A stretch of 35,845 bases of DNA, taken from the IMG/VR virus record IMGVR_UViG_2671180473_000015; one strand, given 5' to 3'. This document shows, one piece after another, positions 1 through 35,502 of this stretch (position 1 is its first letter; every line of letters begins with the position of its first letter). The stretch comes from a virus. Lineage: Duplodnaviria > Heunggongvirae > Uroviricota > Caudoviricetes. The notes below the pieces were generated by a model. That model was not told where the DNA came from. It saw only the letters and a list, made by a program, of their open reading frames with translations, and did no database searches. A program made the position numbers and the translations under genes.

Positions 1-573
1 ATGTTTTGCGAAGAAAAAGTAGCTCAAATGGCTGCATACCTACTTCTTAAGCGAGGTGGGCGCATGGCATATCTGAAATTGATGAAGCTGCTCTATCTGT
101 CTAACCGCAAGTCGATTTTGAAGCATGGCAGGATGATCGGCGAAGATAGCCTTTACTCTATGAAATTTGGTCCAGTCATGTCGAATACGCTGAACTTGAT
201 TCGTGGTAAGGCTGAAGGTATTGGTGACTACTGGTACAACCTGATAGAGACGAACGGGCATGATGTGTTGTTGCGTTCAGATCCGAGGGAAATGGATGCA
301 GACGAGGTCTTTGATGAGTTGAGCCGTGCAGATATCCGGATTTTAGATGAAATCTATTCTCTGTATGGGCATATGAACCGATTTGATCTCGCAAACATGA
401 CGCATTTAGAAAGCGTTTGTCCAGAGTGGCACAATCCTGGCAATTCTCGTAAGCCTATAGACCTGAAAGAAATGCTGATCAGTGAGGGTAAAAGCGAGGA
501 TGAGGCTAATCGTATAATTGGCAAAATGGAAGAATCTCAGAAACTTAAGGAATTTTCTTTGCAATTATCATGA
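1..573 (+). CDS. Panacea-domain (DUF4065) phage-associated protein, SocA/GepA-like putative antitoxin
   Basis: 190-aa ORF starting at window position 1 (N-terminus may lie upstream). The segment AQMAAYLLLKRGGRMAYLKLMKLLYLSNR matches the conserved helix of DUF4065/Panacea proteins as I recall them. Stop overlaps the next ORF start (ATGA at 570-573). Confidence 0.6.
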   Translation: MFCEEKVAQMAAYLLLKRGGRMAYLKLMKLLYLSNRKSILKHGRMIGEDSLYSMKFGPVMSNTLNLIRGKAEGIGDYWYNLIETNGHDVLLRSDPREMDADEVFDELSRADIRILDEIYSLYGHMNRFDLANMTHLESVCPEWHNPGNSRKPIDLKEMLISEGKSEDEANRIIGKMEESQKLKEFSLQLS

Positions 574-989
574 CGGATTATCAGCCATACAGGAAAGGAA
601 CTGTGCTTGCCCCAACTGGGCCATGCAATCATCTTCATGTGATTTGTAATGATCCTGTTTATTACCCCGTTAACGATTGTTATTGTGTTTTAGTTGTTAA
701 TATTTCTAGTATCAAGGATGGTGTCCCCCACGATCCGTCTTGCGTCTTGAATTCTGGTGATCATCGCTTTATCAAGCATCCAAGTTATGTTGTTTACGCT
801 GAAGCTATAATTTGGCGAGTGGATAACATGGTTAGAAAGCAGCGATCGGGTGAGATTTCCGTTCATGATGATATGCCAGAAGCTACATTCAATAGAATTC
901 TGGACGGTTTTGATATATCTGATGAAGTTACGCCAAAGAACCTTAAATTTAAAAATAAATATTGCGTATCATCTATTGATGATGAGTAA
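570..989 (+). CDS. hypothetical protein translationally coupled to the Panacea-domain gene; candidate toxin partner
   Basis: 139-aa ORF whose ATG overlaps the upstream stop (ATGA). No family recognised. Contains an R-x6-H motif (RSGEISVH) reminiscent of HEPN, which is speculative. AT-rich. Confidence 0.45.
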   Translation: MTDYQPYRKGTVLAPTGPCNHLHVICNDPVYYPVNDCYCVLVVNISSIKDGVPHDPSCVLNSGDHRFIKHPSYVVYAEAIIWRVDNMVRKQRSGEISVHDDMPEATFNRILDGFDISDEVTPKNLKFKNKYCVSSIDDE

Positions 990-1028
990 ACAACAGGAAT
1001 TGTTTCGGTATAGCTTCTGGAGTTTTCT

Positions 1029-1202
1029 ATGGAAGATCAAAAAGCAACCAAGCCACAGGTTAAGTTCGACACAATGAAAGCATTCGCAGGTATGGGTGCT
1101 GCTGTTGAAGTTCTGATGAAGGCTGCTCCTAATGCGTTCACTCACGCTACTGTCTCTGGTAAAGAGCAGCAGGGTAAGCTTCGTCGTCGCAAAGCAGCAT
1201 GA
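1029..1202 (+). CDS. small hypothetical protein (57 aa)
   Basis: ATG at 1029, TGA at 1200-1202, immediately followed by a strong intrinsic terminator. Below the 60-aa cut-off of the ORF track. No recognisable family. Confidence 0.3.
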   Translation: MEDQKATKPQVKFDTMKAFAGMGAAVEVLMKAAPNAFTHATVSGKEQQGKLRRRKAA

Positions 1203-1220
1203 TCATAGCTGGTGCTTTTT

Positions 1221-1248
1221 GAAAACCCGCCTTTAGGCGGGTTTTTTC
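1221..1248. terminator. bidirectional rho-independent terminator
   Basis: A-run, stem CCCGCC / GGCGGG with loop TTTA, then T-run (gaaaacccgcctttaggcgggtttttt). Sits between convergent genes ending at 1202 (+) and 1250 (-). Confidence 0.6.
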
Positions 1249-1249
1249 T

Positions 1250-1531
1250 TTAGTGATGTTCTTTGCCCTTCTGTTTGCCTGTTCTGACCTGTTCCCACTC
1301 GATACGTCCTTCTTCTCGTCTTTTGTCTATGTATTCCGCAAGATCCTGAATATTGATGCAACGTTTTGCTTTTTGTGATGTACCGATGCGATATGTAGGT
1401 ACAGGCAACTTACAAGCGTTTGCTTTTGCTTCTGCTGTGGCTGGACTCATACCAAAGTATTTTTGACTAACTGCTGAGAGTTCAATGTTTGGGGTATTGA
1501 ATTCAGCCATCAGTAAAAACAAGGTATTCAT
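1250..1531 (-). CDS. PrtN/AlpA-like excisionase-family small DNA-binding protein (putative)
   Basis: 93-aa ORF. N-terminus MNTLFLLMAEF and the motif PTYRIGTSQKAKRCINIQDLAEYIDKRREE resemble the PrtN / phage excisionase-like family from memory. Confidence 0.5.
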   Translation of the reverse strand: MNTLFLLMAEFNTPNIELSAVSQKYFGMSPATAEAKANACKLPVPTYRIGTSQKAKRCINIQDLAEYIDKRREEGRIEWEQVRTGKQKGKEHH

Positions 1532-1567
1532 ATCATTTCTCCATCATAACCGGCTGCACCCGGTGAG

Positions 1568-2383
1568 TTACTTATTCATTTCAATAATATTATTTTCTAT
1601 CATTGATTTATTTAAAACCAAAGAAGGAGCAAGATGGTTGTCTATTTTAAACAATGCATAACTTTTAAACTGTTGGTGATATCCGTAACTAATAAGGATG
1701 CTAGAAAAATCTCTTAATTCATCTTCTTTTAAAAAATTAAAATGAAATGGGTTGTCACCATTTATGAACAATGAAACATCTATTATGCAGTATTTCTCTC
1801 CGTTGTCATTTGCATAGAAAAAAATATAAGACATTCTGTTTGTTAAGACAATGCCATTAAATTTTCTTATGTCTGTAGCTATTTTGTTTTCCATGTTTGG
1901 TGCTACATATTTATTTTCAGAAATACATTTAATTTCATCTCCAGATGTCGTGATTATATAAAAATGAAACTTATCAGAAATATCTAACTTAACTACGCCA
2001 TCATTATTGTAAAGGCTGCTAAATTTTGGTGGTTCAACTTTTAAAGAATCATAGTTCTTTAAAAGAAGAGGGGAGTCAAATTTAATAACTTGTAGTATCC
2101 CTTTACCTTCAACCTCCATATTGATTGAAGATATAGCAATTGCATTATCTCTTTTATTATTCAGGATTATGGTTGATATATGCATGTCATATATTCTACT
2201 TGCATTTGCTGAATACGACACTGTCACCTTTTTTGATATTTTTTGCACGCCAAAATATATAGTGAAGGCAGCGGCAAGAATAGATAAGAATTTAATGTCA
2301 AATAAGGACCATAGCCACATTAGTTGCTCAATTGCTTCAGAGTTAATCATTTGCTTTACCATTATCGCTGTAATACAACACAT
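1568..2383 (-). CDS. hypothetical single-pass membrane protein encoded in a strongly AT-rich segment (moron-like)
   Basis: Long minus-strand ORF (track 1568..2401 with TTG start; first ATG gives 2383). Hydrophobic N-terminal segment FLSILAAAFTIYFGV followed by a long soluble domain. Local AT content is far above the rest of the prophage. Start codon uncertain (ATG candidates at 2383, 2362, 2350; no clear SD). Confidence 0.5.
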   Translation of the reverse strand: MCCITAIMVKQMINSEAIEQLMWLWSLFDIKFLSILAAAFTIYFGVQKISKKVTVSYSANASRIYDMHISTIILNNKRDNAIAISSINMEVEGKGILQVIKFDSPLLLKNYDSLKVEPPKFSSLYNNDGVVKLDISDKFHFYIITTSGDEIKCISENKYVAPNMENKIATDIRKFNGIVLTNRMSYIFFYANDNGEKYCIIDVSLFINGDNPFHFNFLKEDELRDFSSILISYGYHQQFKSYALFKIDNHLAPSLVLNKSMIENNIIEMNK

Positions 2384-2504
2384 GTGTGTATATATACGCA
2401 ATGCAATTATTTTGCAAGTGCTTCATTTACTATCAATAGCTACGTCACGTTATTGTTTAATGGTTCTTTATAGGGGCGGCAATAGTTAAAATTATCGCTT
2501 CCGT

Positions 2505-2526
2505 AAATGCCCCCGCAGGGGCATTT
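2505..2526 (-). terminator. stem-loop downstream of the YfdQ-like gene (weak terminator or RNA stability element)
   Basis: Perfect 9-bp stem AAATGCCCC / GGGGCATTT with a 4-nt loop. No clean U-tract on the minus strand, so termination efficiency is uncertain. Confidence 0.3.
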
Positions 2527-2538
2527 GCAGTAATGAAA

Positions 2539-3363
2539 TCAGGCGGTGAAAGTACCAATAAAGGTTTCTACTTTGCTGTCTTTGAATTTCTCAACAAGCA
2601 GATCACGAAATTCGTTAGCCATTTCTTCCTGTACCGCTTCCAGCTGAATAATGCGCAGAACCAGTACAGGACGATCGCCAGTGATAATGCTGAGGCGTAA
2701 TTTAAACGGACGTTCTTTCAGACCTTCAAACGGAACGCATTTAAATTCAAATGCCACTGGCATAATGTCTTTGGTCTTCGCTTCGACAGACTCCATCAGG
2801 GAGCGTTTGCCGCTGAAGTCATTATCTTCAAAATCAGCGGTCTGGTTCGCTTCAATTGTGATTTTACGGATCGCCGCAGCCGCTTTGGTTGCCTGAATGG
2901 CGTCACCATTAGCATCAAAGCCCACAAGGTAGTCGGCCCAGTCTTCAATCCATTCTGCCAGTGACTTCTGGGAGTTACGCTCGCCATTAACAGACAACAG
3001 AGCAGAGAACGGAGCTGTCTTTTTCAGTTTGAGAGTGGCGGTGTTATCTGCGTGACCTGGTTCATCAATAGTACCCAGGTTAAGAACACTGACGGCACGC
3101 ATATTATCAGCATCGATAAAGCAGCGGGTGCCTTCATCTGCAAGATCTTTAGAATAACGAGTAAAGTCATCGATGCTGGCAGTGGAAAGCGCACCACGGA
3201 AACGGAAACGATTTAAATTTAATTTTTCCAGATCATGAATGCGGAAATTCTCAGGCAATGCCACAGCATCGGCACCAATCTTACTGATAATTTCATTAAC
3301 ACCCTGAGCAGAAATAAGGGCATGGATTTGATTAATTGCGGTTGCGTCTAAGTTCTGAGACAT
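2539..3363 (-). CDS. DUF2303 / YfdQ-like prophage protein
   Basis: 274-aa ORF. Length and sequence character match what I recall of the YfdQ (DUF2303) family of E. coli CPS-53-type prophages. Follows the YfdP-like gene in the same leftward operon. Confidence 0.55.
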
Positions 3364-11607: not shown

Positions 11608-12360
11608 ATGAACCTTGAAGCCTTACCAAAATATTACTCCCCAAAATCTCCAAAATTGAGCGATGACGCACCGGCGACAGGCTCAGGTGGTTTAACGATT
11701 ACGGATGTGATGGCTGCGCAGGGGATGGTGCAGTCGAAAGCACCGCTTGGGTTTGCCTTATTCCTGGCAAAAGTTGGTGTTCAGGATCCTCAATTTGCGA
11801 TTGAAGGTCTGCTCAATTACGCGATGGCACTGGATAACCCGACATTGAACAAATTGAGTGAAGAAACCCGGTTACAGATCATCCCTTACCTTGTGAATTT
11901 TGCCTTTGCTGATTATTCCAGGTCTGCGGCAAGTAAGGCTCGCTGTGAGCATTGTGCTGGTACTGGATTTCATAATGTATTGCGCGAAGTGGTGAAACAC
12001 TCCAGAAGCGGGGAATCTGTTATCAAGGAAGAGTGGGTGAAGGAACTATGTCAGCATTGCCATGGTAAGGGAGAAGTCAGCACAGCGTGCAGAGGGTGTA
12101 AGGGTAAAGGTATTGTCCTGGATGAAAAAAGAACCCGGCTTCATGGTGTGCCTGTTTATAAGATTTGTGGGCGTTGCAATGGCAACCGGTTTAGCCGTTT
12201 ACCAACCACACTGGCGCGGCATCATGTCCAGAAACTGGTACCGGACCTGACGGATTATCAGTGGTACAAAGGATATGCAGACGTTATTAATAAACTGGTT
12301 ACAAAGTGCTGGCAGGAAGAAGCGTATGCTGAATCGCAATTGAGAAAAGTGACAAGATAG
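11608..12360 (+). CDS. Q: late-gene antitermination protein Q
   Basis: 250-aa product from the ATG at 11608 (SD GGAG 7 nt upstream). Paired CxxC zinc-finger motifs (CEHCAGTGF, CQHCHGKGE, CRGCKGKG, CGRCNGNRF) typical of Q antiterminators. Immediately upstream of a promoter-plus-terminator unit. Confidence 0.8.
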   Translation: MNLEALPKYYSPKSPKLSDDAPATGSGGLTITDVMAAQGMVQSKAPLGFALFLAKVGVQDPQFAIEGLLNYAMALDNPTLNKLSEETRLQIIPYLVNFAFADYSRSAASKARCEHCAGTGFHNVLREVVKHSRSGESVIKEEWVKELCQHCHGKGEVSTACRGCKGKGIVLDEKRTRLHGVPVYKICGRCNGNRFSRLPTTLARHHVQKLVPDLTDYQWYKGYADVINKLVTKCWQEEAYAESQLRKVTR

Positions 12361-12391
12361 ATAATTTTCGCCGAAGATGTCGACGTGATAC

Positions 12392-12420
12392 TTGCATTTT
12401 TCAAAAAATATGGATAAGAT
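12392..12420 (+). promoter_or_regulatory. PR'-like late promoter (candidate Q-utilisation region)
   Basis: -35 TTGCAT (12392-12397), 17-nt spacer, -10 TAAGAT (12415-12420). Lies between the Q stop and the tR'-like terminator, as in lambda. Confidence 0.45.
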
Positions 12421-12463
12421 TTTCTCAACGATGGGCCTTGTATGTCTACCGTTGGTAAATGTC

Positions 12464-12490
12464 AAAAACCCGCCGCTGAGCGGGTTTTTT
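12464..12490 (+). terminator. tR'-like rho-independent terminator
   Basis: AAAAACCCGCCGCTGAGCGGGTTTTTTGTGCC: GC stem plus T-run about 45 nt downstream of the candidate late promoter. Confidence 0.7.
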
Positions 12491-12639
12491 GTGCCTGATG
12501 TCTCATGAAACTATGAAATGGATTGGTGCGTTAAACATTTTTTCTTATTATCTTTTAGATTTTGGAGAGATGGTTAACGTCTGTATTCCAGAAACTCGAT
12601 GGTTATTTAATAAATTAGTTTCAATGATGCTTCTAGGTT

Positions 12640-13065
12640 ATGACTGTAATGAAAAAGGTATTAATAGCAGCGATAGGTTTTTGTTTAGTTGGTTGTGCAG
12701 GTATGAAATTACCTGAGTATTCGCAAGTTAAAGCAAGTCCGTATTATACAGATTGCCGTGCGTTTGCCATGGATGTTTATAAAAATGATGGATACAGCAA
12801 AATTGCGAAAACTACTATCCTTAGCATGGATGATGTGAAAGCTAGATATATTGTGACAGGGTGTGTAGTTGCTATGGGGAAAAACACTGTAGAGGAAATC
12901 AAAGCTGATCTCTCTGCTAAAGGGAGTTCTTTTGGGCTTATCAGTGGAGCTTGTTCTAGTGCGGCATGTCGGGTTGATGTAGAGCAGCAAATGAACGCTT
13001 ATGTACTTGGTAGTTATTATGCTGCAAATAAAAAATTCCCGGATAAAATGAAAGCAGAGTTTTAA
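12640..13065 (+). CDS. lipoprotein encoded by an AT-rich moron between Q and the lysis genes
   Basis: 141-aa ORF. Signal peptide with lipobox (MKKVLIAAIGFCLVGCAG; Cys in LVGC). Several further Cys residues. The flanking region 12490-13140 is markedly AT-rich and bounded by two near-identical terminators. Confidence 0.65.
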   Translation: MTVMKKVLIAAIGFCLVGCAGMKLPEYSQVKASPYYTDCRAFAMDVYKNDGYSKIAKTTILSMDDVKARYIVTGCVVAMGKNTVEEIKADLSAKGSSFGLISGACSSAACRVDVEQQMNAYVLGSYYAANKKFPDKMKAEF

Positions 13066-13142
13066 GCAAACCTTGTTTTCGATTATATGTCGAAGATAAA
13101 TGTTAGTAACGGCATAATAAGTAAATATATAGCTGTGATAGC

Positions 13143-13168
13143 AACCCGCCACTGAGCGGGTTTTTTGT
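13143..13168 (+). terminator. second tR'-like terminator (near-duplicate of 12464-12490)
   Basis: CAACCCGCCACTGAGCGGGTTTTTTGTACCC: same stem and T-run as the terminator at 12464-12490 with two substitutions. Confidence 0.7.
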
Positions 13169-13288
13169 ACCCGTAAACTTGGTGCAGTACAGTAAACACG
13201 CTGGTGGTCGTGAATACTGACTTTTTATCTTGCTGGCTTTTTAGACAAGAGTTATTGGTATGTCATGTTAACCAGAAGGGAAAAAGAC

Positions 13289-13492
13289 ATGCTAAAACAG
13301 CAAGATATGACAGAAACCGCCGCCGCAGTCCTTCATTTCTTACCTGCTGACAAGTGGGTAACGCCACGCATGATGACGAGAACTACCGGAGTAAGCGAAG
13401 CCCGGTGCCAGTTAATACTGACTCAGTTAGTTCTGGCGGGTCTGGCGAAGGATAACGGCGGGTACGGGAATAAATTCAGACGCTGCCAGTAA
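13289..13492 (+). CDS. small hypothetical protein (possible winged-helix protein)
   Basis: 67-aa product from an ATG with an AAGGGA SD-like sequence upstream (track ORF 13265..13492). No recognised family. Directly upstream of the second methyltransferase gene. Confidence 0.35.
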   Translation: MLKQQDMTETAAAVLHFLPADKWVTPRMMTRTTGVSEARCQLILTQLVLAGLAKDNGGYGNKFRRCQ

Positions 13493-13642
13493 TGGCGGTT
13501 TCCTGCTGTGAAAATGGGCGGCTGGTGGGTGTTGGTAGCACCTGCCAGCCATTCGCTCATGCTTACTGGTCACAAGCGAACCACGGCCCACTGCTTTAGC
13601 GCAAAAGCAGAGTGAGCCTACCAGAGTTACGCTTACTGATCC

Positions 13643-14695
13643 ATGAAAAATACTGTAAAAATAAACAGTGTTGATTTAATCAACGCTGATTGCCTGCATT
13701 TTATTCAGTCCCTGCCTGATGATTCCATTGACCTGATTGTTACCGATCCGCCTTACTTCAAGGTGAAACCCAACGGTTGGGACAATCAGTGGAAAGGGGA
13801 CGAAGATTACCTTAAGTGGCTGGACCACTGTCTGGCCCAGTTCTGGCGGGTGTTGAAACCTGCCGGAAGCCTTTACCTGTTCTGTGGGCATCGCCTGGCA
13901 TCTGATATTGAGATCATGATGCGTGAACGTTTCAACGTGCTTAACCATATCATCTGGGCGAAGCCGTCCGGACGTTGGAATGGGTGTAATAAAGAAAGTC
14001 TGCGCGCATATTTTCCTGCCACAGAGCGCGTTCTGTTTGCTGAACATTACCAGGGGCCATATCGCGGCAAAAGTGACGGCTATGCGGCAAAAGAAAGGGA
14101 ACTCAAACAGCACATAATGGCACCGCTGATATCGTATTTCAGGGATGCTCGTGCCGAACTGGGTATAACGGCAAAACAAATTGCCGAAGCCACAGGTAAG
14201 AAAAATATGGTTTCCCACTGGTTTGGTGCCAGTCAGTGGCAGTTGCCGAATGAGGCTGACTATCGGAAGTTACAGGCACTGTTTTCCCGTATAGCGGCAG
14301 AGAAGTTTCAGGAACAACAACTGGAACAACCACACCACCAGCTGGTGGCATCTTATGATTCACTGAATCGTAAATATTCTGAATTGCTGGATGAGTTTAA
14401 ATCTCTCCGGCGCTATTTCTCCGTATCAGTCTCCGTGCCTTATACCGATGTCTGGATGCATAAACCCGTTCAGTTCTACCCGGGGAAACATCCGTGTGAG
14501 AAACCGGCGGATATGCTCAGGCAAATAATCAATGCCAGTAGTCGACCAGGTGATCTGGTTGCTGATTTTTTTATGGGATCCGGTTCCACAATAAAAGCAG
14601 CAATGGCGCTGGGGCGTCGGGCCTTAGGTGTTGAGCTTGAGTCAGAGCGGTTTAATCAGACAGTGAAAGAGATAAACGAGCTGGTGGGGAAATAA
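13643..14695 (+). CDS. DNA methyltransferase, N4/N6 beta-class (DPPY motif before FxGxG motif)
   Basis: 350-aa ORF. Catalytic motif IVTDPPYF near the N-terminus and SAM-binding DFFMGSGST near the C-terminus (PF01555-type order). No cognate endonuclease in the window. Confidence 0.85.
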
Positions 14696-14697
14696 TC

Positions 14698-14725
14698 TGG
14701 TGGCCACGTCAGGTGGCCTTTTTAT
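14698..14725 (+). terminator. rho-independent terminator after the methyltransferase gene
   Basis: Stem GGCCAC / GTGGCC with loop GTCAG, followed by TTTTT. Confidence 0.5.
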
Positions 14726-14762
14726 TTCCATTACACAGCACCCGCATCTGCGAGGTGGGGTT

Positions 14763-14900
14763 ATGAAATCCATGGATAAGTTAACAACGGGTGTCGCCTA
14801 TGGCACCTCAGCAGGTAGTGCCGGGTACTGGTTTTTACAGTTGCTCGATAAAGTCACGCCCTCACAGTGGGCGGCAATAGGTGTGCTGGGTAGTCTGGTA
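14763..14900 (+). CDS. S: S21-type pinholin (class II holin), 3' end lost in an N-run
   Basis: ATG at 14763 with [57 protein letters not shown] matches phage 21 S21 ([46 protein letters not shown]) from memory, including the dual-start Met1/Met4 motif. The true stop lies within the N-run (expected near 14978 if 71 aa). Confidence 0.8.
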
Positions 14901-15140
14901 NNNNNNNNNNNNNNNNNNNNNNNNNNNNNNNNNNNNNNNNNNNNNNNNNNNNNNNNNNNNNNNNNNNNNNNNNNNNNNNNNNNNNNNNNNNNNNNNNNNN
15001 NNNNNNNNNNNNNNNNNNNNNNNNNNNNNNNNNNNNNNNNNNNNNNNNNNNNNNNNNNNNNNNNNNNNNNNNNNNNNNNNNNNNNNNNNNNNNNNNNNNN
15101 NNNNNNNNNNNNNNNNNNNNNNNNNNNNNNNNNNNNNNNN
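14901..15140. other. N-run (240 nt) - assembly gap or masked sequence
   Basis: Continuous n characters; removes the holin 3' end and the holin-endolysin junction. Confidence 0.95.
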
Positions 15141-15207
15141 TTAAGTCACTGACCGGAACAGATAAACCTGTCCGTGGGCAGAAACCGATAAATCCTGATA
15201 AATATCC

Positions 15208-15741
15208 ATGAACGCAAAAATCAGATACGGCCTGTCGGCTGCCGTTCTGGCACTGATTGCCGTCGGTGCGCCCGCGCCTGATATTCTCGACCAGTTTCTG
15301 GATGAAAAAGAAGGTAACCACACAACGGCATACCGCGATGGGTCCGGCATCTGGACCATCTGTCGGGGTGCCACGATGGTGGATGGAAAACCCGTTTTTC
15401 CCGGTATGAAACTGTCGAAGGAAAAATGCGACCAGGTCAACGCCATTGAGCGTGATAAGGCGCTGGCATGGGTGGAGCGCAATATTAAAGTACCACTGAC
15501 CGAGCCACAAAAAGCGGGTATCGCGTCATTTTGTCCCTATAACATTGGCCCCGGTAAGTGTTTTCCGTCGACGTTTTATAAGCGGCTGAATGCTGGTGAT
15601 CGTAAAGGTGCATGCGAGGCGATTCGCTGGTGGATAAAAGATGGTGGGCGCGATTGCCGCATACGTTCAAATAACTGCTATGGACAGGTTATTCGTCGTG
15701 ACCAGGAAAGCGCATTAGCCTGTTGGGGGATAGATCAGTGA
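15208..15741 (+). CDS. R: SAR endolysin (signal-arrest-release lysozyme, R21-like)
   Basis: 177-aa ORF. N-terminal weakly hydrophobic SAR segment ([18 protein letters not shown]) followed by E-x8-D-x5-T catalytic spacing ([16 protein letters not shown]). Pairs functionally with the pinholin. Confidence 0.85.
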
Positions 15742-16205
15742 GCAGAGTCGCCGCGATTATTTATGCTCTGGTTATCTGCATCATCGTCTGCCTGTCGTGG
15801 GCGGTCAATCATTACCGTGATAACGCCATCGCCTACAAAGAACAGCGTGATAAAAAAGTCAGTGAGCTGAAGCAGGCGACCGCCACCATTACTGACATGC
15901 AGCAACGCCAGCGTGCTGCTGATGTACTCGATGCTAAATACACGAAGGAGTTGGCTGATGCGAAAGCTGAAAATGATGCTCTTCGGCGCAAGCTTGATAA
16001 TGGTGGTCGGGTGCTCGTCAAAGGAAAATGCCCTGTGCCATCCTCAGCCGAAACCTCCAGCGCCTCCGGCATGGGCAATGATGCCACCGTCGAACTCTCT
16101 CCAGTTGCTGGACGAAACGTTCTCGGTATCCGGGACGGAATCATCAGAGACCAGACAGCACTGAGAACGCTTCAGGAATATATCAGGACGCAATGCCTTC
16201 GATGA
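15738..16205 (+). CDS. Rz: Rz i-spanin
   Basis: GTG start overlapping the endolysin stop (GTGA). N-terminal TM segment ([17 protein letters not shown]) and coiled-coil-like periplasmic domain. Contains Rz1 in the +1 frame. Confidence 0.75.
15958..16164 (+). CDS. Rz1: Rz1 o-spanin (lipoprotein embedded in Rz)
   Basis: ATG at 15958 with strong SD AAGGAG 7 nt upstream. Signal peptide and lipobox ([21 protein letters not shown]) and a Pro-rich mature region ([16 protein letters not shown]). Fully inside Rz in a different frame. Confidence 0.75.
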
Positions 16206-19617: not shown

Positions 19618-19826
19618 ACCAGAATGATATTGAAGCCATGATTCAGCGTTATACGGAAGCTGAAATGGCGGTGCTGGACGGAAAATCCGTCACCTTTAAT
19701 GGTCAGCAGATGACCATGGAAAACTTATCTGAGATCCGGCAGGGACGGCAGGAGTGGGAGCGCCGCCTTGCGGCTCTGATTACACGACGACGGGGGCATC
19801 CCGGGTACCGGCTGGCGAGGTTCTGA
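19608..19826 (+). CDS. head-tail connector / head completion protein, lambda W-like
   Basis: 72-aa ORF between terminase and portal, ending ...RRRGHPGYRLARF (compare lambda W ...RRRGPAGFYV). Confidence 0.65.
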   Translation: MVMNQNDIEAMIQRYTEAEMAVLDGKSVTFNGQQMTMENLSEIRQGRQEWERRLAALITRRRGHPGYRLARF

Positions 19827-21334
19827 TGGCAATTCTTGATGATGTGATTGGCGTTTTTTCACCAGGATGGAAAGCGGCAAGGCTGCGTTCCCGTGCGGTG
19901 ATCCAGGCTTATGAGGCCGTAAAAACGACGCGGACACACAAAGGCCGGCGGGAAAACCGAACTGCCGACCAGTTAAGCCAGTACGGGGCCGTGTCGTTAC
20001 GTGAGCAGGCCCGTTACCTTGATAACAACCACGATCTGGTTATTGGTGTATTTGACAAGCTGGAAGAACGGGTGGTGGGGAAAAACGGGATTATTGTCGA
20101 GCCACATCCGGTATTACGCAATGGGGCCATTGCCCGTGACCTGGCTGCGGAGATTCGCACCCGATGGAGTGAATGGTCTGTCAGCCCGGAAGTCACCGGG
20201 CAGTTTACCCGTCCGATGCTGGAACGTCTGATGCTGCGTACCTGGCTGCGCGATGGTGAGGTGTTTGCCCAGATGGTTTCCGGGCGCATAAACAGCCTGA
20301 CGCCTTCTGCCGGTGTTCATTTCTGGCTGGAGGCGCTCGAGCCGGACTTTATTCCCATGACCAGTGATGAGAGCAACAGGCTGAATCAGGGCGTGTTTGT
20401 TGATGACTGGGGGCGTCCCGAAAAATATCTGGTGTATAAAAGCCGTCCCGTATCCGGACGGCAGATGGAAACCAAAGAAGTGGATGCAGAGCGAATGCTG
20501 CATCTTAAATTTGTTCGCCGTCTGCACCAGATGCGCGGGACGTCTTTGTTGTCCGGTGTGCTGATCCGCCTCAGTGCCCTGAAAGATTATGAAGATTATG
20601 AGCTGACTGCAGCAAGGATCGCCGCTGCTCTGGGGATGTACATCCGCAAAGGCGACGGGCAGAGCTATGAACCGGATGGTAATGGCAGCAAGGATAAGGA
20701 ACGCGAGCTTACCATTCAGCCAGGCATTATTTACGACGATCTGAAACCCGGCGAAGAAATCGGAATGGTGAAGTCGGATCGCCCCAATCCTAACCTTGAA
20801 ACTTTTCGTAATGGTCAGTTGCGTGCCGTGGCGGCGGGCAGTCGTCTGAGTTTTTCCAGTACAGCGCGCAACTATAACGGCACTTACAGCGCCCAGCGTC
20901 AGGAGCTGGTTGAATCTACTGATGGCTACCTGATCCTGCAGGACTGGTTTATTGGTGCCGTCACCCGCCCGATGTATCGTGCATGGCTGAAACAGGCTGT
21001 GGCATCCGGTGTTATCAGGCTACCCCGCGATCTTGACCGTTCTTCACTGTATACCGCGGTGTATTCCGGACCGGTGATGCCGTGGATTGACCCTGTTAAG
21101 GAGGCTGAGGCCTGGAAAATCCAGATTCGTGGTGGAGCGGCGACAGAATCAGACTGGGTACGTGCAGGTGGTCGTAATCCGGATGATGTCAAACGTCGGC
21201 GCAAGGCCGAAATTGATGAAAACCGCAAGCTGGATCTGGTATTTGATACCGATCCGGCCAGTGATAAAGGAGGCAGCAGTGCCGCAACGAAACGACAGGA
21301 GCCGCAGCACACCGACGACCAGTCCGAAGAATAA
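19826..21334 (+). CDS. B: portal protein (lambda gpB-like)
   Basis: 502-aa product from the ATG at 19826, which overlaps the W-like stop (TGATG). Position and size fit a portal. The track ORF 19754..21334 is an upstream extension. Confidence 0.85.
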   Translation: MAILDDVIGVFSPGWKAARLRSRAVIQAYEAVKTTRTHKGRRENRTADQLSQYGAVSLREQARYLDNNHDLVIGVFDKLEERVVGKNGIIVEPHPVLRNGAIARDLAAEIRTRWSEWSVSPEVTGQFTRPMLERLMLRTWLRDGEVFAQMVSGRINSLTPSAGVHFWLEALEPDFIPMTSDESNRLNQGVFVDDWGRPEKYLVYKSRPVSGRQMETKEVDAERMLHLKFVRRLHQMRGTSLLSGVLIRLSALKDYEDYELTAARIAAALGMYIRKGDGQSYEPDGNGSKDKERELTIQPGIIYDDLKPGEEIGMVKSDRPNPNLETFRNGQLRAVAAGSRLSFSSTARNYNGTYSAQRQELVESTDGYLILQDWFIGAVTRPMYRAWLKQAVASGVIRLPRDLDRSSLYTAVYSGPVMPWIDPVKEAEAWKIQIRGGAATESDWVRAGGRNPDDVKRRRKAEIDENRKLDLVFDTDPASDKGGSSAATKRQEPQHTDDQSEE

Positions 21335-21347
21335 TTCCTGGTTCAGG

Positions 21348-23306
21348 ATGCAGGCTGGTCACCAGAGTGACGCGGATATTTATATTTATGACGAGATTGG
21401 TTTCTGGGGTGTTACAGCGAAGCAGTTTATCAGTGATCTGAATGCACTGGGCGATATCACCCACATTAATCTCCATATTAATTCACCGGGTGGCGATGTC
21501 TTTGAAGGCATCGCCATTTTTAATGCGCTGAAAACACATGGTGCGTCCATTACCGTTTATGTCGACGGTGTGGCGGCGTCAATGGCGTCGGTCATTGCGA
21601 TGGTGGGAAACCCGGTCATTATGCCGGAAAACACCTTCATGATGATTCATAAACCATTTGGCTTTACGGGCGGTGATGCGGAGGACATGCGCACCTATGC
21701 CGACCTGCTCGATAAGGTTGAGGCGGTTCTGTTACCCGCTTATGCACAGAAAACCGGGAAAACCACCGATGAAATTGCTGCCATGCTGGCGGATGAGACC
21801 TGGATGTCCGGTGCCGAATGTCTGGCACAGGGATTTGCTGATCAGGTGACGCCAGCCGTTAAGGCAATGGCATGTATTCAGTCAAAACGTACAGAGGAAT
21901 TTAAAAAGATGCCGGAATCCATTCGAAACATGATTACTCCGCCACGCAACAGTGCTCCACGCGTACAGGATGATGAACCTGCAGCCTCCCGGACGCCAGT
22001 GCAGGCAGCAGCACCCGTGGTGGATGAAAACAGTATCCGTGCGCAGGTACTGGCAGAGCAAAAAGCGCGTGTAAACGGTATTAATGATCTGTTTGCCATG
22101 TTTGGCGGGCGTTATCAGACGCTGCAGGCTCAGTGTCTTGCCGATCCTGAATGTTCGCTGGAGCAGGCCCGCGAAAAGCTGTTGAACGAGATGGGGCGCG
22201 AGTCCACGCCATCCAATAAAAATACCCCGGCTCATATTTATGCCGGAAACGGTAATTTTGTGGGGGACGGGATCCGCCAGGCGCTGATGGCGCGTGCCGG
22301 ATTTGAAAAAACCGAACGTGATAATGTCTACAACGGGATGACCCTGCGTGAATATGCCCGTATGTCACTGACTGAACGGGGTATTGGGGTTTCCAGTTAT
22401 AACCCGATGCAGATGGTCGGTGCGGCGTTCACACACAGTACGTCTGACTTCGGTAATATTCTGCTGGATGTTGCGAACAAAGCCATTCTGCAGGGCTGGG
22501 AAGATGCCCCTGAAACCTATGAACAGTGGACGCGGAAAGGTCAGTTGTCTGATTTTAAAATTGCCCATCGTGTGGGTATGGGGGGCTTCAGTGCTCTGCG
22601 TCAGGTGCGTGAAGGGGCGGAATATAAATACGTCACCACCGGAGATAAACAGGCCACTATTGCACTGGCGACCTATGGCGAGCTGTTCAGTATCACCCGT
22701 CAGGCCATTATCAATGATGATCTGAATATGCTGACCGATGTCCCGATGAAACTGGGCCGTGCGGCGAAATCCACTATTGCCGATCTGGTTTATGCCATTC
22801 TGACGTCTAACCCGAAAATCTCCACAGATAATGTAAGTCTGTTCGATAAAGCGAAACATGCAAACGTACTGGATAGCGCTGCAATGGACGTGGCATCGCT
22901 GGATAAAGCCCGCCAGTTGATGCGCGTTCAGAAAGAGGGGGAGCGTCATCTGAATATTCGTCCTGCGTTCGTACTGGTACCGACGGCGATGGAGTCTGTT
23001 GCTAACCAGGTCATTCGCTCCTCAAGTGTCAAGGGGGCCGACATTAACGCCGGTATTATTAACCCGGTGAAAGATTTTGCGACCGTTATTGCAGAGCCTC
23101 GTCTTGATGATAACAGCCAGACCACCTTCTACCTGGCTGCGTCAAAAGGCTCCGATACGATTGAAGTGGCTTATCTCAACGGTGTGGATACGCCATATAT
23201 TGATCAGATGGAGGGCTTCAGTGTGGATGGCGTGACAACGAAAGTGCGTATTGACGCCGGTGTCGCGCCAGTTGATCACCGCGGTCTGGTGAAATGTACG
23301 GCGTAA
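21348..23306 (+). CDS. prohead protease (ClpP/S14-like) fused to scaffold-like linker and HK97-fold major capsid protein
   Basis: 652-aa product from the ATG at 21348, 14 nt after the portal stop. N-terminal ClpP-like domain (DIYIYDEIGFWGV...INSPGGDVFEGIAIFNALKTHGASITVYVDGVAASMASVIAMVG), then an Ala/Gln-rich linker, then a capsid-like domain of about 380 aa. Confidence 0.75.
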   Translation: MQAGHQSDADIYIYDEIGFWGVTAKQFISDLNALGDITHINLHINSPGGDVFEGIAIFNALKTHGASITVYVDGVAASMASVIAMVGNPVIMPENTFMMIHKPFGFTGGDAEDMRTYADLLDKVEAVLLPAYAQKTGKTTDEIAAMLADETWMSGAECLAQGFADQVTPAVKAMACIQSKRTEEFKKMPESIRNMITPPRNSAPRVQDDEPAASRTPVQAAAPVVDENSIRAQVLAEQKARVNGINDLFAMFGGRYQTLQAQCLADPECSLEQAREKLLNEMGRESTPSNKNTPAHIYAGNGNFVGDGIRQALMARAGFEKTERDNVYNGMTLREYARMSLTERGIGVSSYNPMQMVGAAFTHSTSDFGNILLDVANKAILQGWEDAPETYEQWTRKGQLSDFKIAHRVGMGGFSALRQVREGAEYKYVTTGDKQATIALATYGELFSITRQAIINDDLNMLTDVPMKLGRAAKSTIADLVYAILTSNPKISTDNVSLFDKAKHANVLDSAAMDVASLDKARQLMRVQKEGERHLNIRPAFVLVPTAMESVANQVIRSSSVKGADINAGIINPVKDFATVIAEPRLDDNSQTTFYLAASKGSDTIEVAYLNGVDTPYIDQMEGFSVDGVTTKVRIDAGVAPVDHRGLVKCTA

Positions 23307-23329: not shown

Positions 23330-23349
23330 GGCCCGTAAGGGCTTTTTTT
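23330..23349 (+). terminator. short rho-independent terminator/attenuator after the capsid gene
   Basis: GGCCCGTAAGGGC followed by TTTTTTT. A second hairpin AGCCCC-TGAA-CGGGGCT follows at about 23362-23378. Confidence 0.5.
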
Positions 23350-23392
23350 GTACCTGAAATCAGCCCCTGAACGGGGCTGTGCGGAGACAGTT

Positions 23393-23716
23393 ATGGCAAA
23401 GAATTTTGTAGAAGAAGGAAAAACGGTGGCGATTGTTGCCAGTGCAGCCATCAGCAGCGGAGATCTGGTGCAGGTGGGTGATGTTTTTGCGGTGGCACTG
23501 ACCGATATTCCACAGGGTGAAACAGGCGACGGCCTGACCGAAGGTGTGTTTATGCTGCCTAAGCTGAAAACGGATGACATGAAAACGGGTAAGAAGGTTT
23601 ATCTGAAGTCCGGAAAAGTTCAGCTGACTAACAGCGGCTCTGATCCGCTGGTCGGGGTTGTCTGGGCAGATGCCGGAACCAGTGCAGAAGAAGTGCCGGT
23701 AAAACTCAATGTCTGA
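23393..23716 (+). CDS. small head protein, DUF2190-like (putative decoration/cement protein)
   Basis: 107-aa product from the ATG at 23393 with SD GGAG 6 nt upstream. Sits directly after the capsid gene. Family from memory. Confidence 0.5.
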   Translation: MAKNFVEEGKTVAIVASAAISSGDLVQVGDVFAVALTDIPQGETGDGLTEGVFMLPKLKTDDMKTGKKVYLKSGKVQLTNSGSDPLVGVVWADAGTSAEEVPVKLNV

Positions 23717-24574: not shown

Positions 24575-24972
24575 ACCGACATACACAAATCCGCCAGGTC
24601 GTACTGGCACGCCTTCGGGAACAGTGTGGAGACAGCGCCACGTTTTTTGACGGGCTTCCGGCATTTGTTGATGCGCAGGAACTGCCTGCCGTGGCGGTGT
24701 GGCTGAGTGATGCTCAGTACACCGGAAAAATGACGGATGAAGATGACTGGCAGGCTGTTCTGCATATTGCTGTCTTCATCCGGGCACAGGCACCGGATTC
24801 AGAGCTGGATATGTGGATGGAGAGCACCATTTTCCCGGCCTTGAATGATGTACCAGCACTTTCCGGACTCATCGACACCCTGATCCCACTCGGTTTTAAC
24901 TATCAACGTGATAATGAGATGGCCACCTGGGCGATGGCGGAAATCACGTACCAGATCACGTACACGAATTAA
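24571..24972 (+). CDS. U: tail terminator protein U
   Basis: 133-aa product from the ATG at 24571 (ATGA overlap with the Z stop). Strong similarity to lambda U from memory (ATFFDG.PA.FDE..FPAVAVYL...DSELD.WMES.I.P...IPALS.LI). The track start at 24559 is less likely. Confidence 0.7.
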   Translation: MNRHTQIRQVVLARLREQCGDSATFFDGLPAFVDAQELPAVAVWLSDAQYTGKMTDEDDWQAVLHIAVFIRAQAPDSELDMWMESTIFPALNDVPALSGLIDTLIPLGFNYQRDNEMATWAMAEITYQITYTN

Positions 24973-24982
24973 GGAGGTGGTA

Positions 24983-25726
24983 ATGACCACACCAAATCCA
25001 CTGGCAAAAACGAAAGGTGCGGGAACGACGTTCTGGATGTATACCGGCAAGGGCGATGCGTTTGCGAACCCTTTATCGGACACTGACTGGCTGCGTCTTG
25101 CGATGGTGAAGGATCTGCAACCTGGCGAAATGACCGCTGATGCAGAAGATGACACTTATCTCGATGATGAAGATGCAGACTGGAAAACGACAACCCAGGG
25201 GCAGAAATCCGTTGGTGATACTTCGGCGACGCTGGCCTGGCGTCCGGGTGACAGCGGGCAGAAAAAACTGGTTCAGTTGTTCGACTCCGGTGAAGTCTGC
25301 GCGTTTCGTATCAAATATCCCAACGGTACTGTTGATGTTTTCCGTGGCTGGCTGAGTTCACTGGGTAAAACCATTGCCTCAAAAGACGTGATGACCCGCA
25401 CAGTGAAAATCAGCGGTGTGGGGCGTCCGTATCTGGCAGAGGAAGGCACTGAAACAGTGAGCGTTACCGGGCTGACGGTGGCACCGGCATCTGCCAGTGT
25501 AAAAGTGGGAGCAACCACCACGCTGACCTTTACAGTAAAACCTGACGGAGCCAGTGACAAAGCGATCAGTGTGCATTCGACAGATCCACAGACTGCCACG
25601 GTGACCCTGAACGGGCTTGTGGCCACGGTGAAAGGCGTGAAGCAGGGCAGTGTCAGCATTGTGGGCATGACCGCTGACGGGAATTTTGTGGCAGTGGCTA
25701 CGGTGACTGTCAGCGCAGCAGGTTAA
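24983..25726 (+). CDS. V: major tail protein V with C-terminal Ig-like domain
   Basis: 247-aa product from the ATG at 24983 with SD AAGGAGGTGG. Close similarity to lambda V from memory (KGAGTT.W.Y.G.GD..ANPLSD.DW.RLA.VKDL.PGE.TA...DD.YLDDEDADW...GQGQKS.GDTS.TLAW.PG). Confidence 0.85.
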   Translation: MTTPNPLAKTKGAGTTFWMYTGKGDAFANPLSDTDWLRLAMVKDLQPGEMTADAEDDTYLDDEDADWKTTTQGQKSVGDTSATLAWRPGDSGQKKLVQLFDSGEVCAFRIKYPNGTVDVFRGWLSSLGKTIASKDVMTRTVKISGVGRPYLAEEGTETVSVTGLTVAPASASVKVGATTTLTFTVKPDGASDKAISVHSTDPQTATVTLNGLVATVKGVKQGSVSIVGMTADGNFVAVATVTVSAAG

Positions 25727-30550: not shown

Positions 30551-31294
30551 ATGACACAGACAGAATCAGCGATTCTGGCGCACGCCCGGCGATGTGCGCC
30601 AGCGGAGTCGTGCGGCTTCGTGGTGAGAACACCGGAGGGGGAAAGATATTTTCCCTGCGTGAATATCTCCGGTGAGCCGGAGGAGTATTTCCGGATGTCG
30701 CCGGAGGACTGGCTGCGGGCAGAGATGCAGGGTGAGATTGTGGCGCTGGTCCACAGCCACCCCGGTGGTCTGCCCTGGCTGAGTGAGGCCGACCGGCGGC
30801 TGCAGGTGCAGAGTGATTTGCCGTGGTGGCTGGTCTGCCGGGGGGCGATTCACAAGTTCCGCTGTGTGCCACATCTTACCGGGCGGCGCTTTGAGCACGG
30901 GGTGACGGACTGTTACACGCTGTTCCGGGATGCTTACCATCTGGCGGGGATTGAGATGCCGGATTTTCATCGCGGGGATGACTGGTGGCGTCACGGTCAG
31001 AATCTCTATCTGGATAATCTGGAGGCTACAGGGCTGTATCAGGTGCCGTTGTCAGCGGCGCAGCCGGGCGATGTGCTGCTGTGCTGTTTTGGTTCATCGG
31101 TGCCGAATCATGCCGCCATTTACTGTGGTGACGGCGAGCTGCTGCACCATATTCCTGAACAACTGAGCAAACGAGAGAGGTATACCGACAAATGGCAGCG
31201 ACGCACACACTCCCTCTGGCGTCACCGGGCATGGCACGCATCTGCCTTTACGGGGATTTACAACGATTTGGCCGCCGCATCGACCTTCGAGTGA
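30551..31294 (+). CDS. K: tail assembly protein K (JAB/MPN plus NlpC/P60-like domains)
   Basis: 247-aa ORF. MTQTESAILAHARRCAPAESCGFVV...HSHPGG... matches lambda K from memory. Confidence 0.85.
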   Translation: MTQTESAILAHARRCAPAESCGFVVRTPEGERYFPCVNISGEPEEYFRMSPEDWLRAEMQGEIVALVHSHPGGLPWLSEADRRLQVQSDLPWWLVCRGAIHKFRCVPHLTGRRFEHGVTDCYTLFRDAYHLAGIEMPDFHRGDDWWRHGQNLYLDNLEATGLYQVPLSAAQPGDVLLCCFGSSVPNHAAIYCGDGELLHHIPEQLSKRERYTDKWQRRTHSLWRHRAWHASAFTGIYNDLAAASTFE

Positions 31295-31896
31295 AAACGG
31301 GGTCCGAAGCCATCCGGGCGCTGGCCATGCAGATCCCGGCGTTTCGTCAGAAACTGAATGAGGGCTGGTATCAGGTGCGCATTGCCGGGCGTGATGCAGG
31401 CGAAAATGAATTATCTGCCCGTCTTAATGAGCCGCTGGCAAATGGTGCCGTGATCCACATCGTGCCGCGTCTGGCGGGAGCTAAAAGTGGCGGTGTGTTT
31501 CAGGTGGTGCTTGGGGCGGCGCTGATTGCGGTGGCATGGTGGAACCCTGTGGGCTGGCTGGGGNNNNNNNNNNNNNNNNNNNNNNNNNNNNNNNNNNNNN
31601 NNNNNNNNNNNNNNNNNNNNNNNNNNNNNNNNNNNNNNNNNNNNNNNNNNNNNNNNNNNNNNNNNNNNNNNNNNNNNNNNNNNNNNNNNNNNNNNNNNNN
31701 NNNNNNNNNNNNNNNNNNNNNNNNNNNNNNNNNNNNNNNNNNNNNNNNNNNNNNNNNNNNNNNNNNNNNNNNNNNNNNNNNNNNNNNNNNNNNNNNNNNN
31801 NNNNNNNNNNNNNNNNNNNNNNNNNNNNNNNNNNNNNNNNNNNTCAGCACGGCAGACGAAGGGGATGGTGGTCAGGTTGTGGTGATTGGTCGCTGA
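31192..31896 (+). CDS. I: tail assembly protein I (interrupted by an N-run)
   Basis: Starts MAATHTLPLASPGMARICLYGDLQRFGRRIDLRV as in lambda I. Overlaps the 3' end of K in another frame, as in lambda. The middle is lost in the N-run 31564-31843. Ends ...STADEGDGGQVVVIGR. Confidence 0.75.
   Translation: MAATHTLPLASPGMARICLYGDLQRFGRRIDLRVKTGSEAIRALAMQIPAFRQKLNEGWYQVRIAGRDAGENELSARLNEPLANGAVIHIVPRLAGAKSGGVFQVVLGAALIAVAWWNPVGWLGXXXXXXXXXXXXXXXXXXXXXXXXXXXXXXXXXXXXXXXXXXXXXXXXXXXXXXXXXXXXXXXXXXXXXXXXXXXXXXXXXXXXXXXXXXXXXXSTADEGDGGQVVVIGR
31564..31843. other. N-run (280 nt) - assembly gap or masked sequence
   Basis: Continuous n characters inside gene I. Confidence 0.95.
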
Positions 31897-31956
31897 TGCA
31901 AAATGTTTTATGTGAAACCGCCTCCGGGCGGTTTTGTCGTTTATGGAGCGTGAGGA

Positions 31957-35502
<3,546 letters not shown>

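Follow-up and report, generated by a model that had tools for sequence, protein, structure and literature searches.

Does a single gene in this phage genome encode both a protease and the major capsid protein, and if so, where does it begin? The window, i.e., the whole stretch of 35,845 nucleotides analyzed here (IMG/VR record IMGVR_UViG_2671180473_000015, Caudoviricetes), is a mEp460/cdtI-like lambdoid phage genome. The first-pass annotation of its sequence described a 652-aa gene at positions 21348-23306 that fuses a ClpP-like prohead protease to the major capsid protein through an Ala/Gln-rich scaffold-like linker. We consider it very probable that this is the head-assembly gene of a mEp460/cdtI-like lambdoid phage or prophage, orthologous to the Gifsy-2 gene, and that it encodes a GTG-started polypeptide of 675 aa with protease, linker-scaffold and capsid parts that would process itself inside the shell. 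The fusion is a known type; new here is the most likely start, which lies 69 bases (23 codons) 5' of the reported one.

A single uninterrupted reading frame

The gene as we read it is the following:

21279 to 23306, plus strand: full coding sequence of the protease-scaffold-major capsid protein fusion, 675 codons plus TAA, 73.5 kDa, from the likely GTG start

On the plus strand, the frame that ends with the TAA at 23304-23306 is open back to 21078, and counted from the ATG at 21348 it holds 652 aa. An open frame of 2 kb is not a chance event. The same unbroken single ORF is found in 74 phage records and, as one continuous frame, in 80 viral contigs (related loci all at least 73% identical), and fusions of like kind and length make up most of the best 150 cluster representatives at 50% identity. 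One cluster, P0014, by itself has 8230 member sequences. Because the identical ORF layout recurs in phage records, viral contigs and cluster representatives, a hidden stop or frameshift is excluded, and the missed stop or frameshift between two genes that the first-pass annotation had raised can be ruled out. The description of one continuous ORF with three segments is likewise correct: the frame contains matches to CLP_protease and Phage_capsid_4, and between them lie a disordered stretch rich in Pro, Ala and Gln and a helical region.

Separate genes are the usual arrangement in lambdoid phages, and the gene is disrupted in one Pseudomonas record (PAN70). One might therefore suspect that a protease/scaffold gene and a capsid gene were joined here by a sequencing error. 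However, the recurrence of the ORF across the phage records, the viral contigs and most of the best 150 representatives already effectively refutes such an artefact, as do the size of P0014 and the existence of a curated NCBIfam model for the fusion. We give it practically no chance.

Neighbouring genes

The gene lies between two other head genes, with a terminator-like element on its 3' side:

19826 to 21334, plus strand: lambda-family portal gene, directly upstream (PF05136, 2.5e-81; annotated in phi458)
23330 to 23353, plus strand: GC hairpin with a T run behind it, resembling a terminator; lies between the capsid and cement genes
23393 to 23716, plus strand: head cement/decoration protein gene, 107 aa (PF09956 Phage_cement_2, 2.3e-20)

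The mEp213 record annotates a rho-independent terminator at the same place as the hairpin. The cement gene product is 61% identical to the Gifsy-2 neighbour STM1034, and further downstream there is a gene of the Gifsy-2-family head-tail type.

The last 56 nt of the portal gene overlap the fusion gene in another frame. Proteins of 1159 aa with a portal-protease-capsid architecture occur in public assemblies, and programmed frameshifting within the 56-nt overlap could be imagined to produce such a polyprotein. Each of these proteins forms a singleton cluster, though, and the shift required would be +1 or -2, with no slippery motif seen. In the copy examined, the joined frame results from the loss at DNA level of one G, at window position 21284. 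This one-base deletion accounts for the joined frame in that copy, and we rejected a programmed portal/protease frameshift, which we regard as highly improbable.

The start codon

The features that bear on the 5' end of the gene are:

21268 to 21273, plus strand: Shine-Dalgarno sequence AGGAGG, 5 nt before the GTG at 21279 and within the last codons of the portal gene; conserved in relatives
21279 to 21347, plus strand: N-terminal 23 residues missed by the reported start; basic, variable tail with pI 12, predicted to be disordered
21348 to 21350, plus strand: ATG taken as the start by the first-pass annotation and by most GenBank phage records; probably internal Met24

The first-pass annotation saw the frame open for about 260 nt upstream, into the portal gene, and asked for confirmation of the start. 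The frame does extend, by another 270 nt 5' of 21348; its first TTG is at 21087, and it differs from the frame of the portal gene. On the evidence of the Shine-Dalgarno sequence, conservation and RefSeq, the start moves to the GTG at 21279, which is the likely start and gives a protein of 675 aa and 73.5 kDa with the ATG at 21348 probably as an internal Met24. Of the gene first drawn as 652 aa at 21348-23306, the open frame and the TAA stand, while the 5' end and the length need to be changed. The roughly 190 nt of open frame 5' of the GTG are non-coding.

A start at the ATG, with the upstream open frame as a chance by-product of the portal gene sequence, might still seem the natural choice. 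ATG is the commonest start codon, and this one is the annotated start in the GenBank records of phi458, cdtI and mEp460, whose genes are 99% identical to the present one. Furthermore, the alignment to the NCBIfam model NF045540 starts at residue 9 of the 652-aa form, and residues 1-20 of the longer form vary in sequence and are predicted to be disordered. Several observations nevertheless make this start quite unlikely. No Shine-Dalgarno sequence was found upstream of the ATG, whereas AGGAGG precedes the GTG by 5 nt. Of 52 distinct upstream sequences from relatives, 44, from enterobacteria, show a start codon and Shine-Dalgarno sequence at the corresponding place; in three of them (L048, L049 and L051) the codon is ATG instead of GTG. 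The RefSeq E. coli proteins P0004 (357 member sequences) and P0014 are both 675 aa long.

Conservation of the encoded residues points the same way. The tail missed by the reported start ends in a conserved Ser20-Trp21-Phe22, and the in-frame residues just 5' of the ATG read Asn-Ser-Trp-Phe-Arg. Both S20 and W21 are invariant in 17 relatives, and Ser-Trp-(Phe/Tyr) is kept in Gifsy-2, Fels-1, mEp213, an Stx2d phage, a Providencia phage and Pseudomonas F10. Since the Ser of this motif is spelled with different codons among relatives (TCC, AGC, TCG, AGT), the conservation acts at the protein level. We also compared the protein with an alignment of 88 more distant fusion proteins that are 34-52% identical to it. 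Of the 61 that reach the position of Trp21, 44 have Trp there, mostly 2-10 residues away from the N-terminus.

Gifsy-2, Fels-1 and F10 have an Ile codon, ATC or ATT, where the present gene has the ATG at 21348, and their proteins must therefore begin upstream of it. Among the 88 distant fusions, the position of Met24 is occupied by Ile in 43 and by Met in only 11. In addition, the ClpP profile alignment begins at profile position 5-6, ahead of Met24. We therefore read the gene as 21279-23306, because of the Shine-Dalgarno sequence, the conserved Ser-Trp motif, the Ile at the ATG position and the RefSeq length. The first 56 nt of the gene read in this way overlap the 3' end of the portal gene, and translation from the GTG is probably coupled to the end of the portal gene. 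In practical terms, the gene should be read from GTG 21279 as a 675-aa protein that overlaps the portal gene, and in most genomes deposited for phages of the mEp460/cdtI group the annotated start probably lies 23 codons too far downstream.

The protease domain

The N-terminal part of the protein carries the following features, numbered on the 675-aa form unless stated otherwise:

21339 to 21854, plus strand: ClpP-like (S14) protease domain, residues about 21-192
21579 to 21581, plus strand: codon for Ser101 (Ser78 in the 652-aa form), predicted to be catalytic; the surrounding GVAASMAS motif aligns with the ClpP active-site AASM
21648 to 21650, plus strand: codon for His124, likewise predicted to be catalytic; the surrounding MMIHKP motif aligns with ClpP MIHQP
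21795 to 21797, plus strand: codon for Glu173, which the alignment to 1y7o places where ClpP has its triad Asp

The proposed S14/ClpP similarity is borne out by formal search. Pfam CLP_protease (PF00574) matches residues 23-168 in 652-aa numbering with 124 bits against a cut-off of 20.2 (6.5e-36), and solved ClpP structures in the PDB are matched with an E value of 1e-15 by sequence and 5e-34 with a family profile. The N-terminal domain has the ClpP fold (S14, clan SK) and a score above the Pfam gathering cut-off. Its catalytic triad positions are homologous to those of ClpP; Ser and His are kept, and the third residue is Glu173 instead of Asp. Across the alignment, Ser101 and His124 are invariant (88/88), while the position of Glu173 holds Glu in 75/88 and Asp in 9/88. 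We would not expect a heptameric barrel of the cellular ClpP type to be formed by a domain that is tethered to capsid subunits.

Linker and scaffold-like region

Two features follow the protease domain:

21951 to 22016, plus strand: linker rich in Pro, Ala, Gln and Thr and in indels, residues about 225-246; predicted to be disordered, pLDDT <50
22005 to 22328, plus strand: scaffold-like region, residues about 243-350; helices from the AlphaFold model; aligns with the Nu3 part of lambda gpC

The linker is hypervariable among relatives and also changes in length. In an AlphaFold model built on the alignment of 88 fusions (mean pLDDT 89.3), pLDDT falls below 50 only at residues 1-20 and 225-246, with a further dip at about 310-325. 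The model places helices of the scaffold-like region at residues 250-273, 280-288 and 294-307 and, after the weakly predicted and indel-rich loop at 308-326, at 327-339. The Ala/Gln-rich, scaffold-like linker seen at first pass thus corresponds to a disordered Pro/Ala/Gln-rich stretch together with helices that align with the Nu3/scaffold portion of lambda gpC.

No Pfam family matched the central 185 residues. With hhalign, residues 60-350 align with residues 123-433 of lambda gpC at a probability of 89.7% (E 1.8e-6; a single lambda sequence), and within this match the scaffold-like region pairs with gpC residues 339-433. We call the middle of the protein scaffold-like on the basis of its position, its helicity and this one match. 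Lambda gpC is 439 residues long, which would put the boundary between the C/Nu3-like part and the capsid part near residue 356.

The capsid domain

The remainder of the protein is accounted for by one feature:

22401 to 23294, plus strand: HK97-fold major capsid protein domain of the Mu-gpT/Phage_capsid_4 type, residues about 375-672

Judged from the alignment with lambda gpC, the capsid part may start already near residue 357. Pfam Phage_capsid_4 matches residues 352-649 in 652-aa numbering (7.9e-55), with a secondary match to Mu-like gpT; the scores are 187.4 bits against a cut-off of 27 for PF25209 and 33.6 bits against 20.1 for PF10124. The confident model contains the N-arm, the E-loop hairpin, the spine helix and the A domain of the HK97 fold. 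The assignment of an HK97-fold capsid domain to the C-terminus can therefore be retained, given Pfam matches above cut-off and the fold in the model. By sequence, the capsid part finds in the PDB no more than a weak match, the Mu-gpT-type capsid protein of JBD30 (E 2.8e-4). Profile comparison detected no similarity between the capsid domain and lambda gpE, and the domain is therefore not lambda-E-like.

Proposed assembly, processing and stoichiometry

From homology we infer how such a protein could be processed, where it may be cleaved and in which stoichiometry its parts would occur. The C-terminal HK97-fold domains would assemble on the portal into the shell of a T=7 procapsid, and the N-terminal parts, protease and scaffold, would face its interior. 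There, the scaffold part would direct assembly, as does the delta domain of HK97 or Nu3 of lambda. The ClpP-fold domains, enclosed and concentrated, would then cut off and digest residues 1 to about 310-375, so that the mature capsid protein would measure roughly 33-40 kDa. Cleavage would most plausibly fall in the loop at 308-326 or at the equivalent of the gpC end near residue 356. The shell would expand on DNA packaging and would afterwards be stabilised by the cement protein encoded just downstream.

A fused gene would also be expected to impose a strict 1:1 ratio of protease to capsid protein. We estimate that 415 subunits of a T=7 procapsid, each with an internal part of about 39 kDa, would amount to about 16 MDa inside the procapsid, a load that by the same estimate is larger than in the HK97, lambda and P22 procapsids. 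With a procapsid this crowded, early processing or a shorter second product is conceivable. A candidate for the start of such a product lies within the gene:

21909 to 21911, plus strand: ATG of Met211, candidate internal start for a 465-aa, 50.7 kDa scaffold-capsid product without the protease

If this ATG were used in addition to the start of the full-length protein, a protease-less scaffold-capsid protein would be made, and protease and capsid would not be present 1:1. The phage would then tune this ratio instead of having it locked, and a strict 1:1 stoichiometry would be relaxed. The crowding estimate favours the shorter product, and a nested scaffold has a precedent in lambda, where Nu3 lies within C; the Z gene of Mu, which lies within I, is a similar nested gene. 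Met211 is invariant across the enterobacterial and Pseudomonas clade. The sequence GAGGA (AGGAG in F10) precedes its ATG by 9-10 nt. Across 15 distinct haplotypes this sequence does not change, and Glu206 is always encoded by GAG, while neighbouring codons vary synonymously. Gene-wide, Glu is encoded by 20 GAA and 15 GAG codons.

However, these haplotypes are related, which weakens the argument from the GAG codon, and the Shine-Dalgarno match covers only 4-5 nt with a spacing at the long end. In the wider family, Ala, Val, Ile or Pro stands in place of Met211, while its neighbours Pro212 and Phe208 are conserved, which points to a constraint at the protein level. The start of lambda Nu3, moreover, aligns elsewhere, near residue 155. 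On balance, we regard internal initiation at Met211 as a tentative possibility that is rather unlikely to apply, and we prefer a single full-length polypeptide that would deliver protease and capsid parts in equal numbers.

Comparison with known systems

The 'tripartite capsid gene' of Gifsy-2 was reportedly described by Effantin et al. in 2010, in Virology 402:355. Fusions of this kind have been in the literature since 2010 and have curated NCBIfam and PHROG families. The NCBIfam model NF045540, 'ClpP-like prohead protease/major capsid protein fusion protein', scores 985.2 bits against a cut-off of 475, with residues 9-651 of the 652-aa form aligned to model positions 2-651 of 652, and phrog_133 matches end to end. 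The arrangement is among the commoner ones for head genes in proteobacterial prophages.

Several published systems correspond to it. The prohead protease and coat genes of Gifsy-2 are stated to be fused, and heads of the mEp213 and LLS type to resemble that of Gifsy-2 (PMC12315714). The Gifsy-2 capsid is given as T=7 (PMC8814770), and its cement protein as trimeric and located at the threefold axes (PMC8538268). In Pseudomonas phage MD8, gp5 is described as protease, scaffold and capsid protein encoded by one gene, and HHpred relates it to the Mu capsid protein as well as to lambda gpC (PMC8508860). A fusion of ClpP with Mu-gpT occurs in 34% of Paracoccus siphovirus prophages (PMC6536676). As the literature on Gifsy-2, MD8 and Paracoccus describes such fusions, the present type is already known; it is Gifsy-2-like and widespread in prophages. 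For the Gifsy-2 orthologue, it is accepted that the protease is delivered in cis and that the protein processes itself (PMC12315714, PMC8508860).

The closest genes, with DNA identities of 99.0-99.9%, are those of phi458, cdtI, mEp460, Tritos and Ayreon. In these phages, both the gene and the head and tail module around it are essentially identical to ours, and the only difference is one of annotation, namely the ATG start. The names given to near-identical genes in GenBank vary and include protease, Nu3, major head protein and preconnector protease C. Labels such as 'Nu3', 'putative protease' and 'terminase protein' mask the identity of the product as a major capsid protein. At the protein level, identity is 74-78% to mEp213, LLS and several Stx phages, 72% to Fels-1 and 57% to Pseudomonas F10 and MD8.

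The Gifsy-2 gene STM1034.3n is 69% identical over 668 residues, i.e., full length, with conservation visibly highest in the capsid part. In both genes, one ORF encodes a protease resembling ClpP, then a central domain some 200 residues long and finally a capsid protein with the HK97 fold, and both stand in a lambdoid genome in the order lambda-type portal, fusion gene and cement protein. They differ in the sequence and length of the linker, with a 7-residue insertion near residue 316 in Gifsy-2, and in the Ile that Gifsy-2 has at the position of our Met24. The gp5 proteins of MD8 and F10 come from phages of another host and are 57% identical over the full length, but their annotated N-terminus is longer (693 aa) and starts at an ATG with GGAGG upstream.

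With lambda, the present phage shares a polypeptide in which a protease of the ClpP/SppA clan is followed by a scaffold region, in gpC, or a scaffold-like one, here, as well as a lambda-family portal and a decoration protein encoded nearby. Lambda C differs in being an S49 peptidase, and a nested start additionally yields its scaffold Nu3. The capsid protein of lambda, gpE, has a gene of its own and shows no detectable similarity to the present capsid domain. In HK97, the protease is also a separate gene and belongs to a herpesvirus-protease-like family, not to ClpP, and the head is stabilised by covalent chainmail instead of a cement protein.

Overlap of the portal and fusion genes

The fusion gene encoding the ClpP-like protease, scaffold and major capsid protein probably begins within the portal gene, in another reading frame, and two positions in this region are relevant here:

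21268-21334: SD sequence plus codons 1-19 of the fusion gene, within the 3' end of the portal gene
21284: position of the G lost in the inspected joined copy described below, in GCCGCAA within 21279-21290 (see also L088:1915-2035)

The SD sequence lies in the portal codons Lys-Gly-Gly (AAA GGA GGC). Since both this sequence and the first 19 fusion-gene codons fall inside the end of the portal gene, the portal C-terminus and the fusion protein N-terminus are dual-coded, and translation of the two genes is probably coupled.

Public assemblies also contain 1159-aa proteins (P0006-P0017) in which portal, protease and capsid are joined. In the one copy inspected, GCA_012637905.1, the joined protein originates from the loss of a single G, so that the portal frame runs on in that of the protease/capsid gene directly 3' of the GTG start. 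Programmed frameshifting was considered as the source of these proteins and rejected, as the inspected copy carries the one-G loss in the DNA itself. Mutation or misassembly appears to account for the joined frame.

Candidate signals within and downstream of the fusion gene

21894-21898: GAGGA, 10 nt 5' of the Met211 ATG
21909-21911: invariant in-frame ATG (Met211), candidate nested start
23330-23353: terminator-like hairpin, GGCCCGTAAGGGCT followed by T7, between the capsid and cement genes

The GAG codon in GAGGA is constant across 15 distinct haplotypes, while the flanking codons carry synonymous changes. Met211 is a possible nested start of a scaffold-capsid product; this Met is not conserved in distant members of the fusion family.

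The hairpin begins 24 nt 3' of the capsid gene stop and 5' of the cement gene, and a rho-independent terminator is annotated at the equivalent place in the mEp213 record. This putative terminator might reduce expression of the genes 3' of the very abundant capsid protein.

Naming of the fusion gene

GenBank records of phi458, cdtI, mEp460, PhiR55_1, mEp043 and others name the fusion gene differently (putative protease, protease/scaffold, Major head protein, head-tail preconnector protein Nu3, preconnector protease C, and even terminase protein), and most use the probably internal ATG (21348-21350) as gene start. Automated searches for major capsid proteins can overlook this gene. In PMC8814770, Gifsy-2 is listed among the phages that yielded no HK97-fold capsid protein.

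Base composition and the major tail protein

G+C content is 0.37-0.46 in 1-3000, 12000-16000, 31000-33000 and 34000-35000, and about 0.52-0.56 in the head and tail genes. The low-G+C blocks fit the usual lambdoid mosaic pattern of early, lysis, accessory and tail-fibre regions. Among the tail genes, one ORF is of note:

24908-25726: major tail protein, ending in a putative Ig-like (Big_2-type) segment

In translation, this final segment (…VSVTGLTVAPASASVKVGATTTLTFTVKPDG…) reads like an Ig-like (Big_2-type) domain. Lambda gpV has an Ig-like domain, and F10 has a 'major tail protein with Ig-like domain', both resembling the putative arrangement here.
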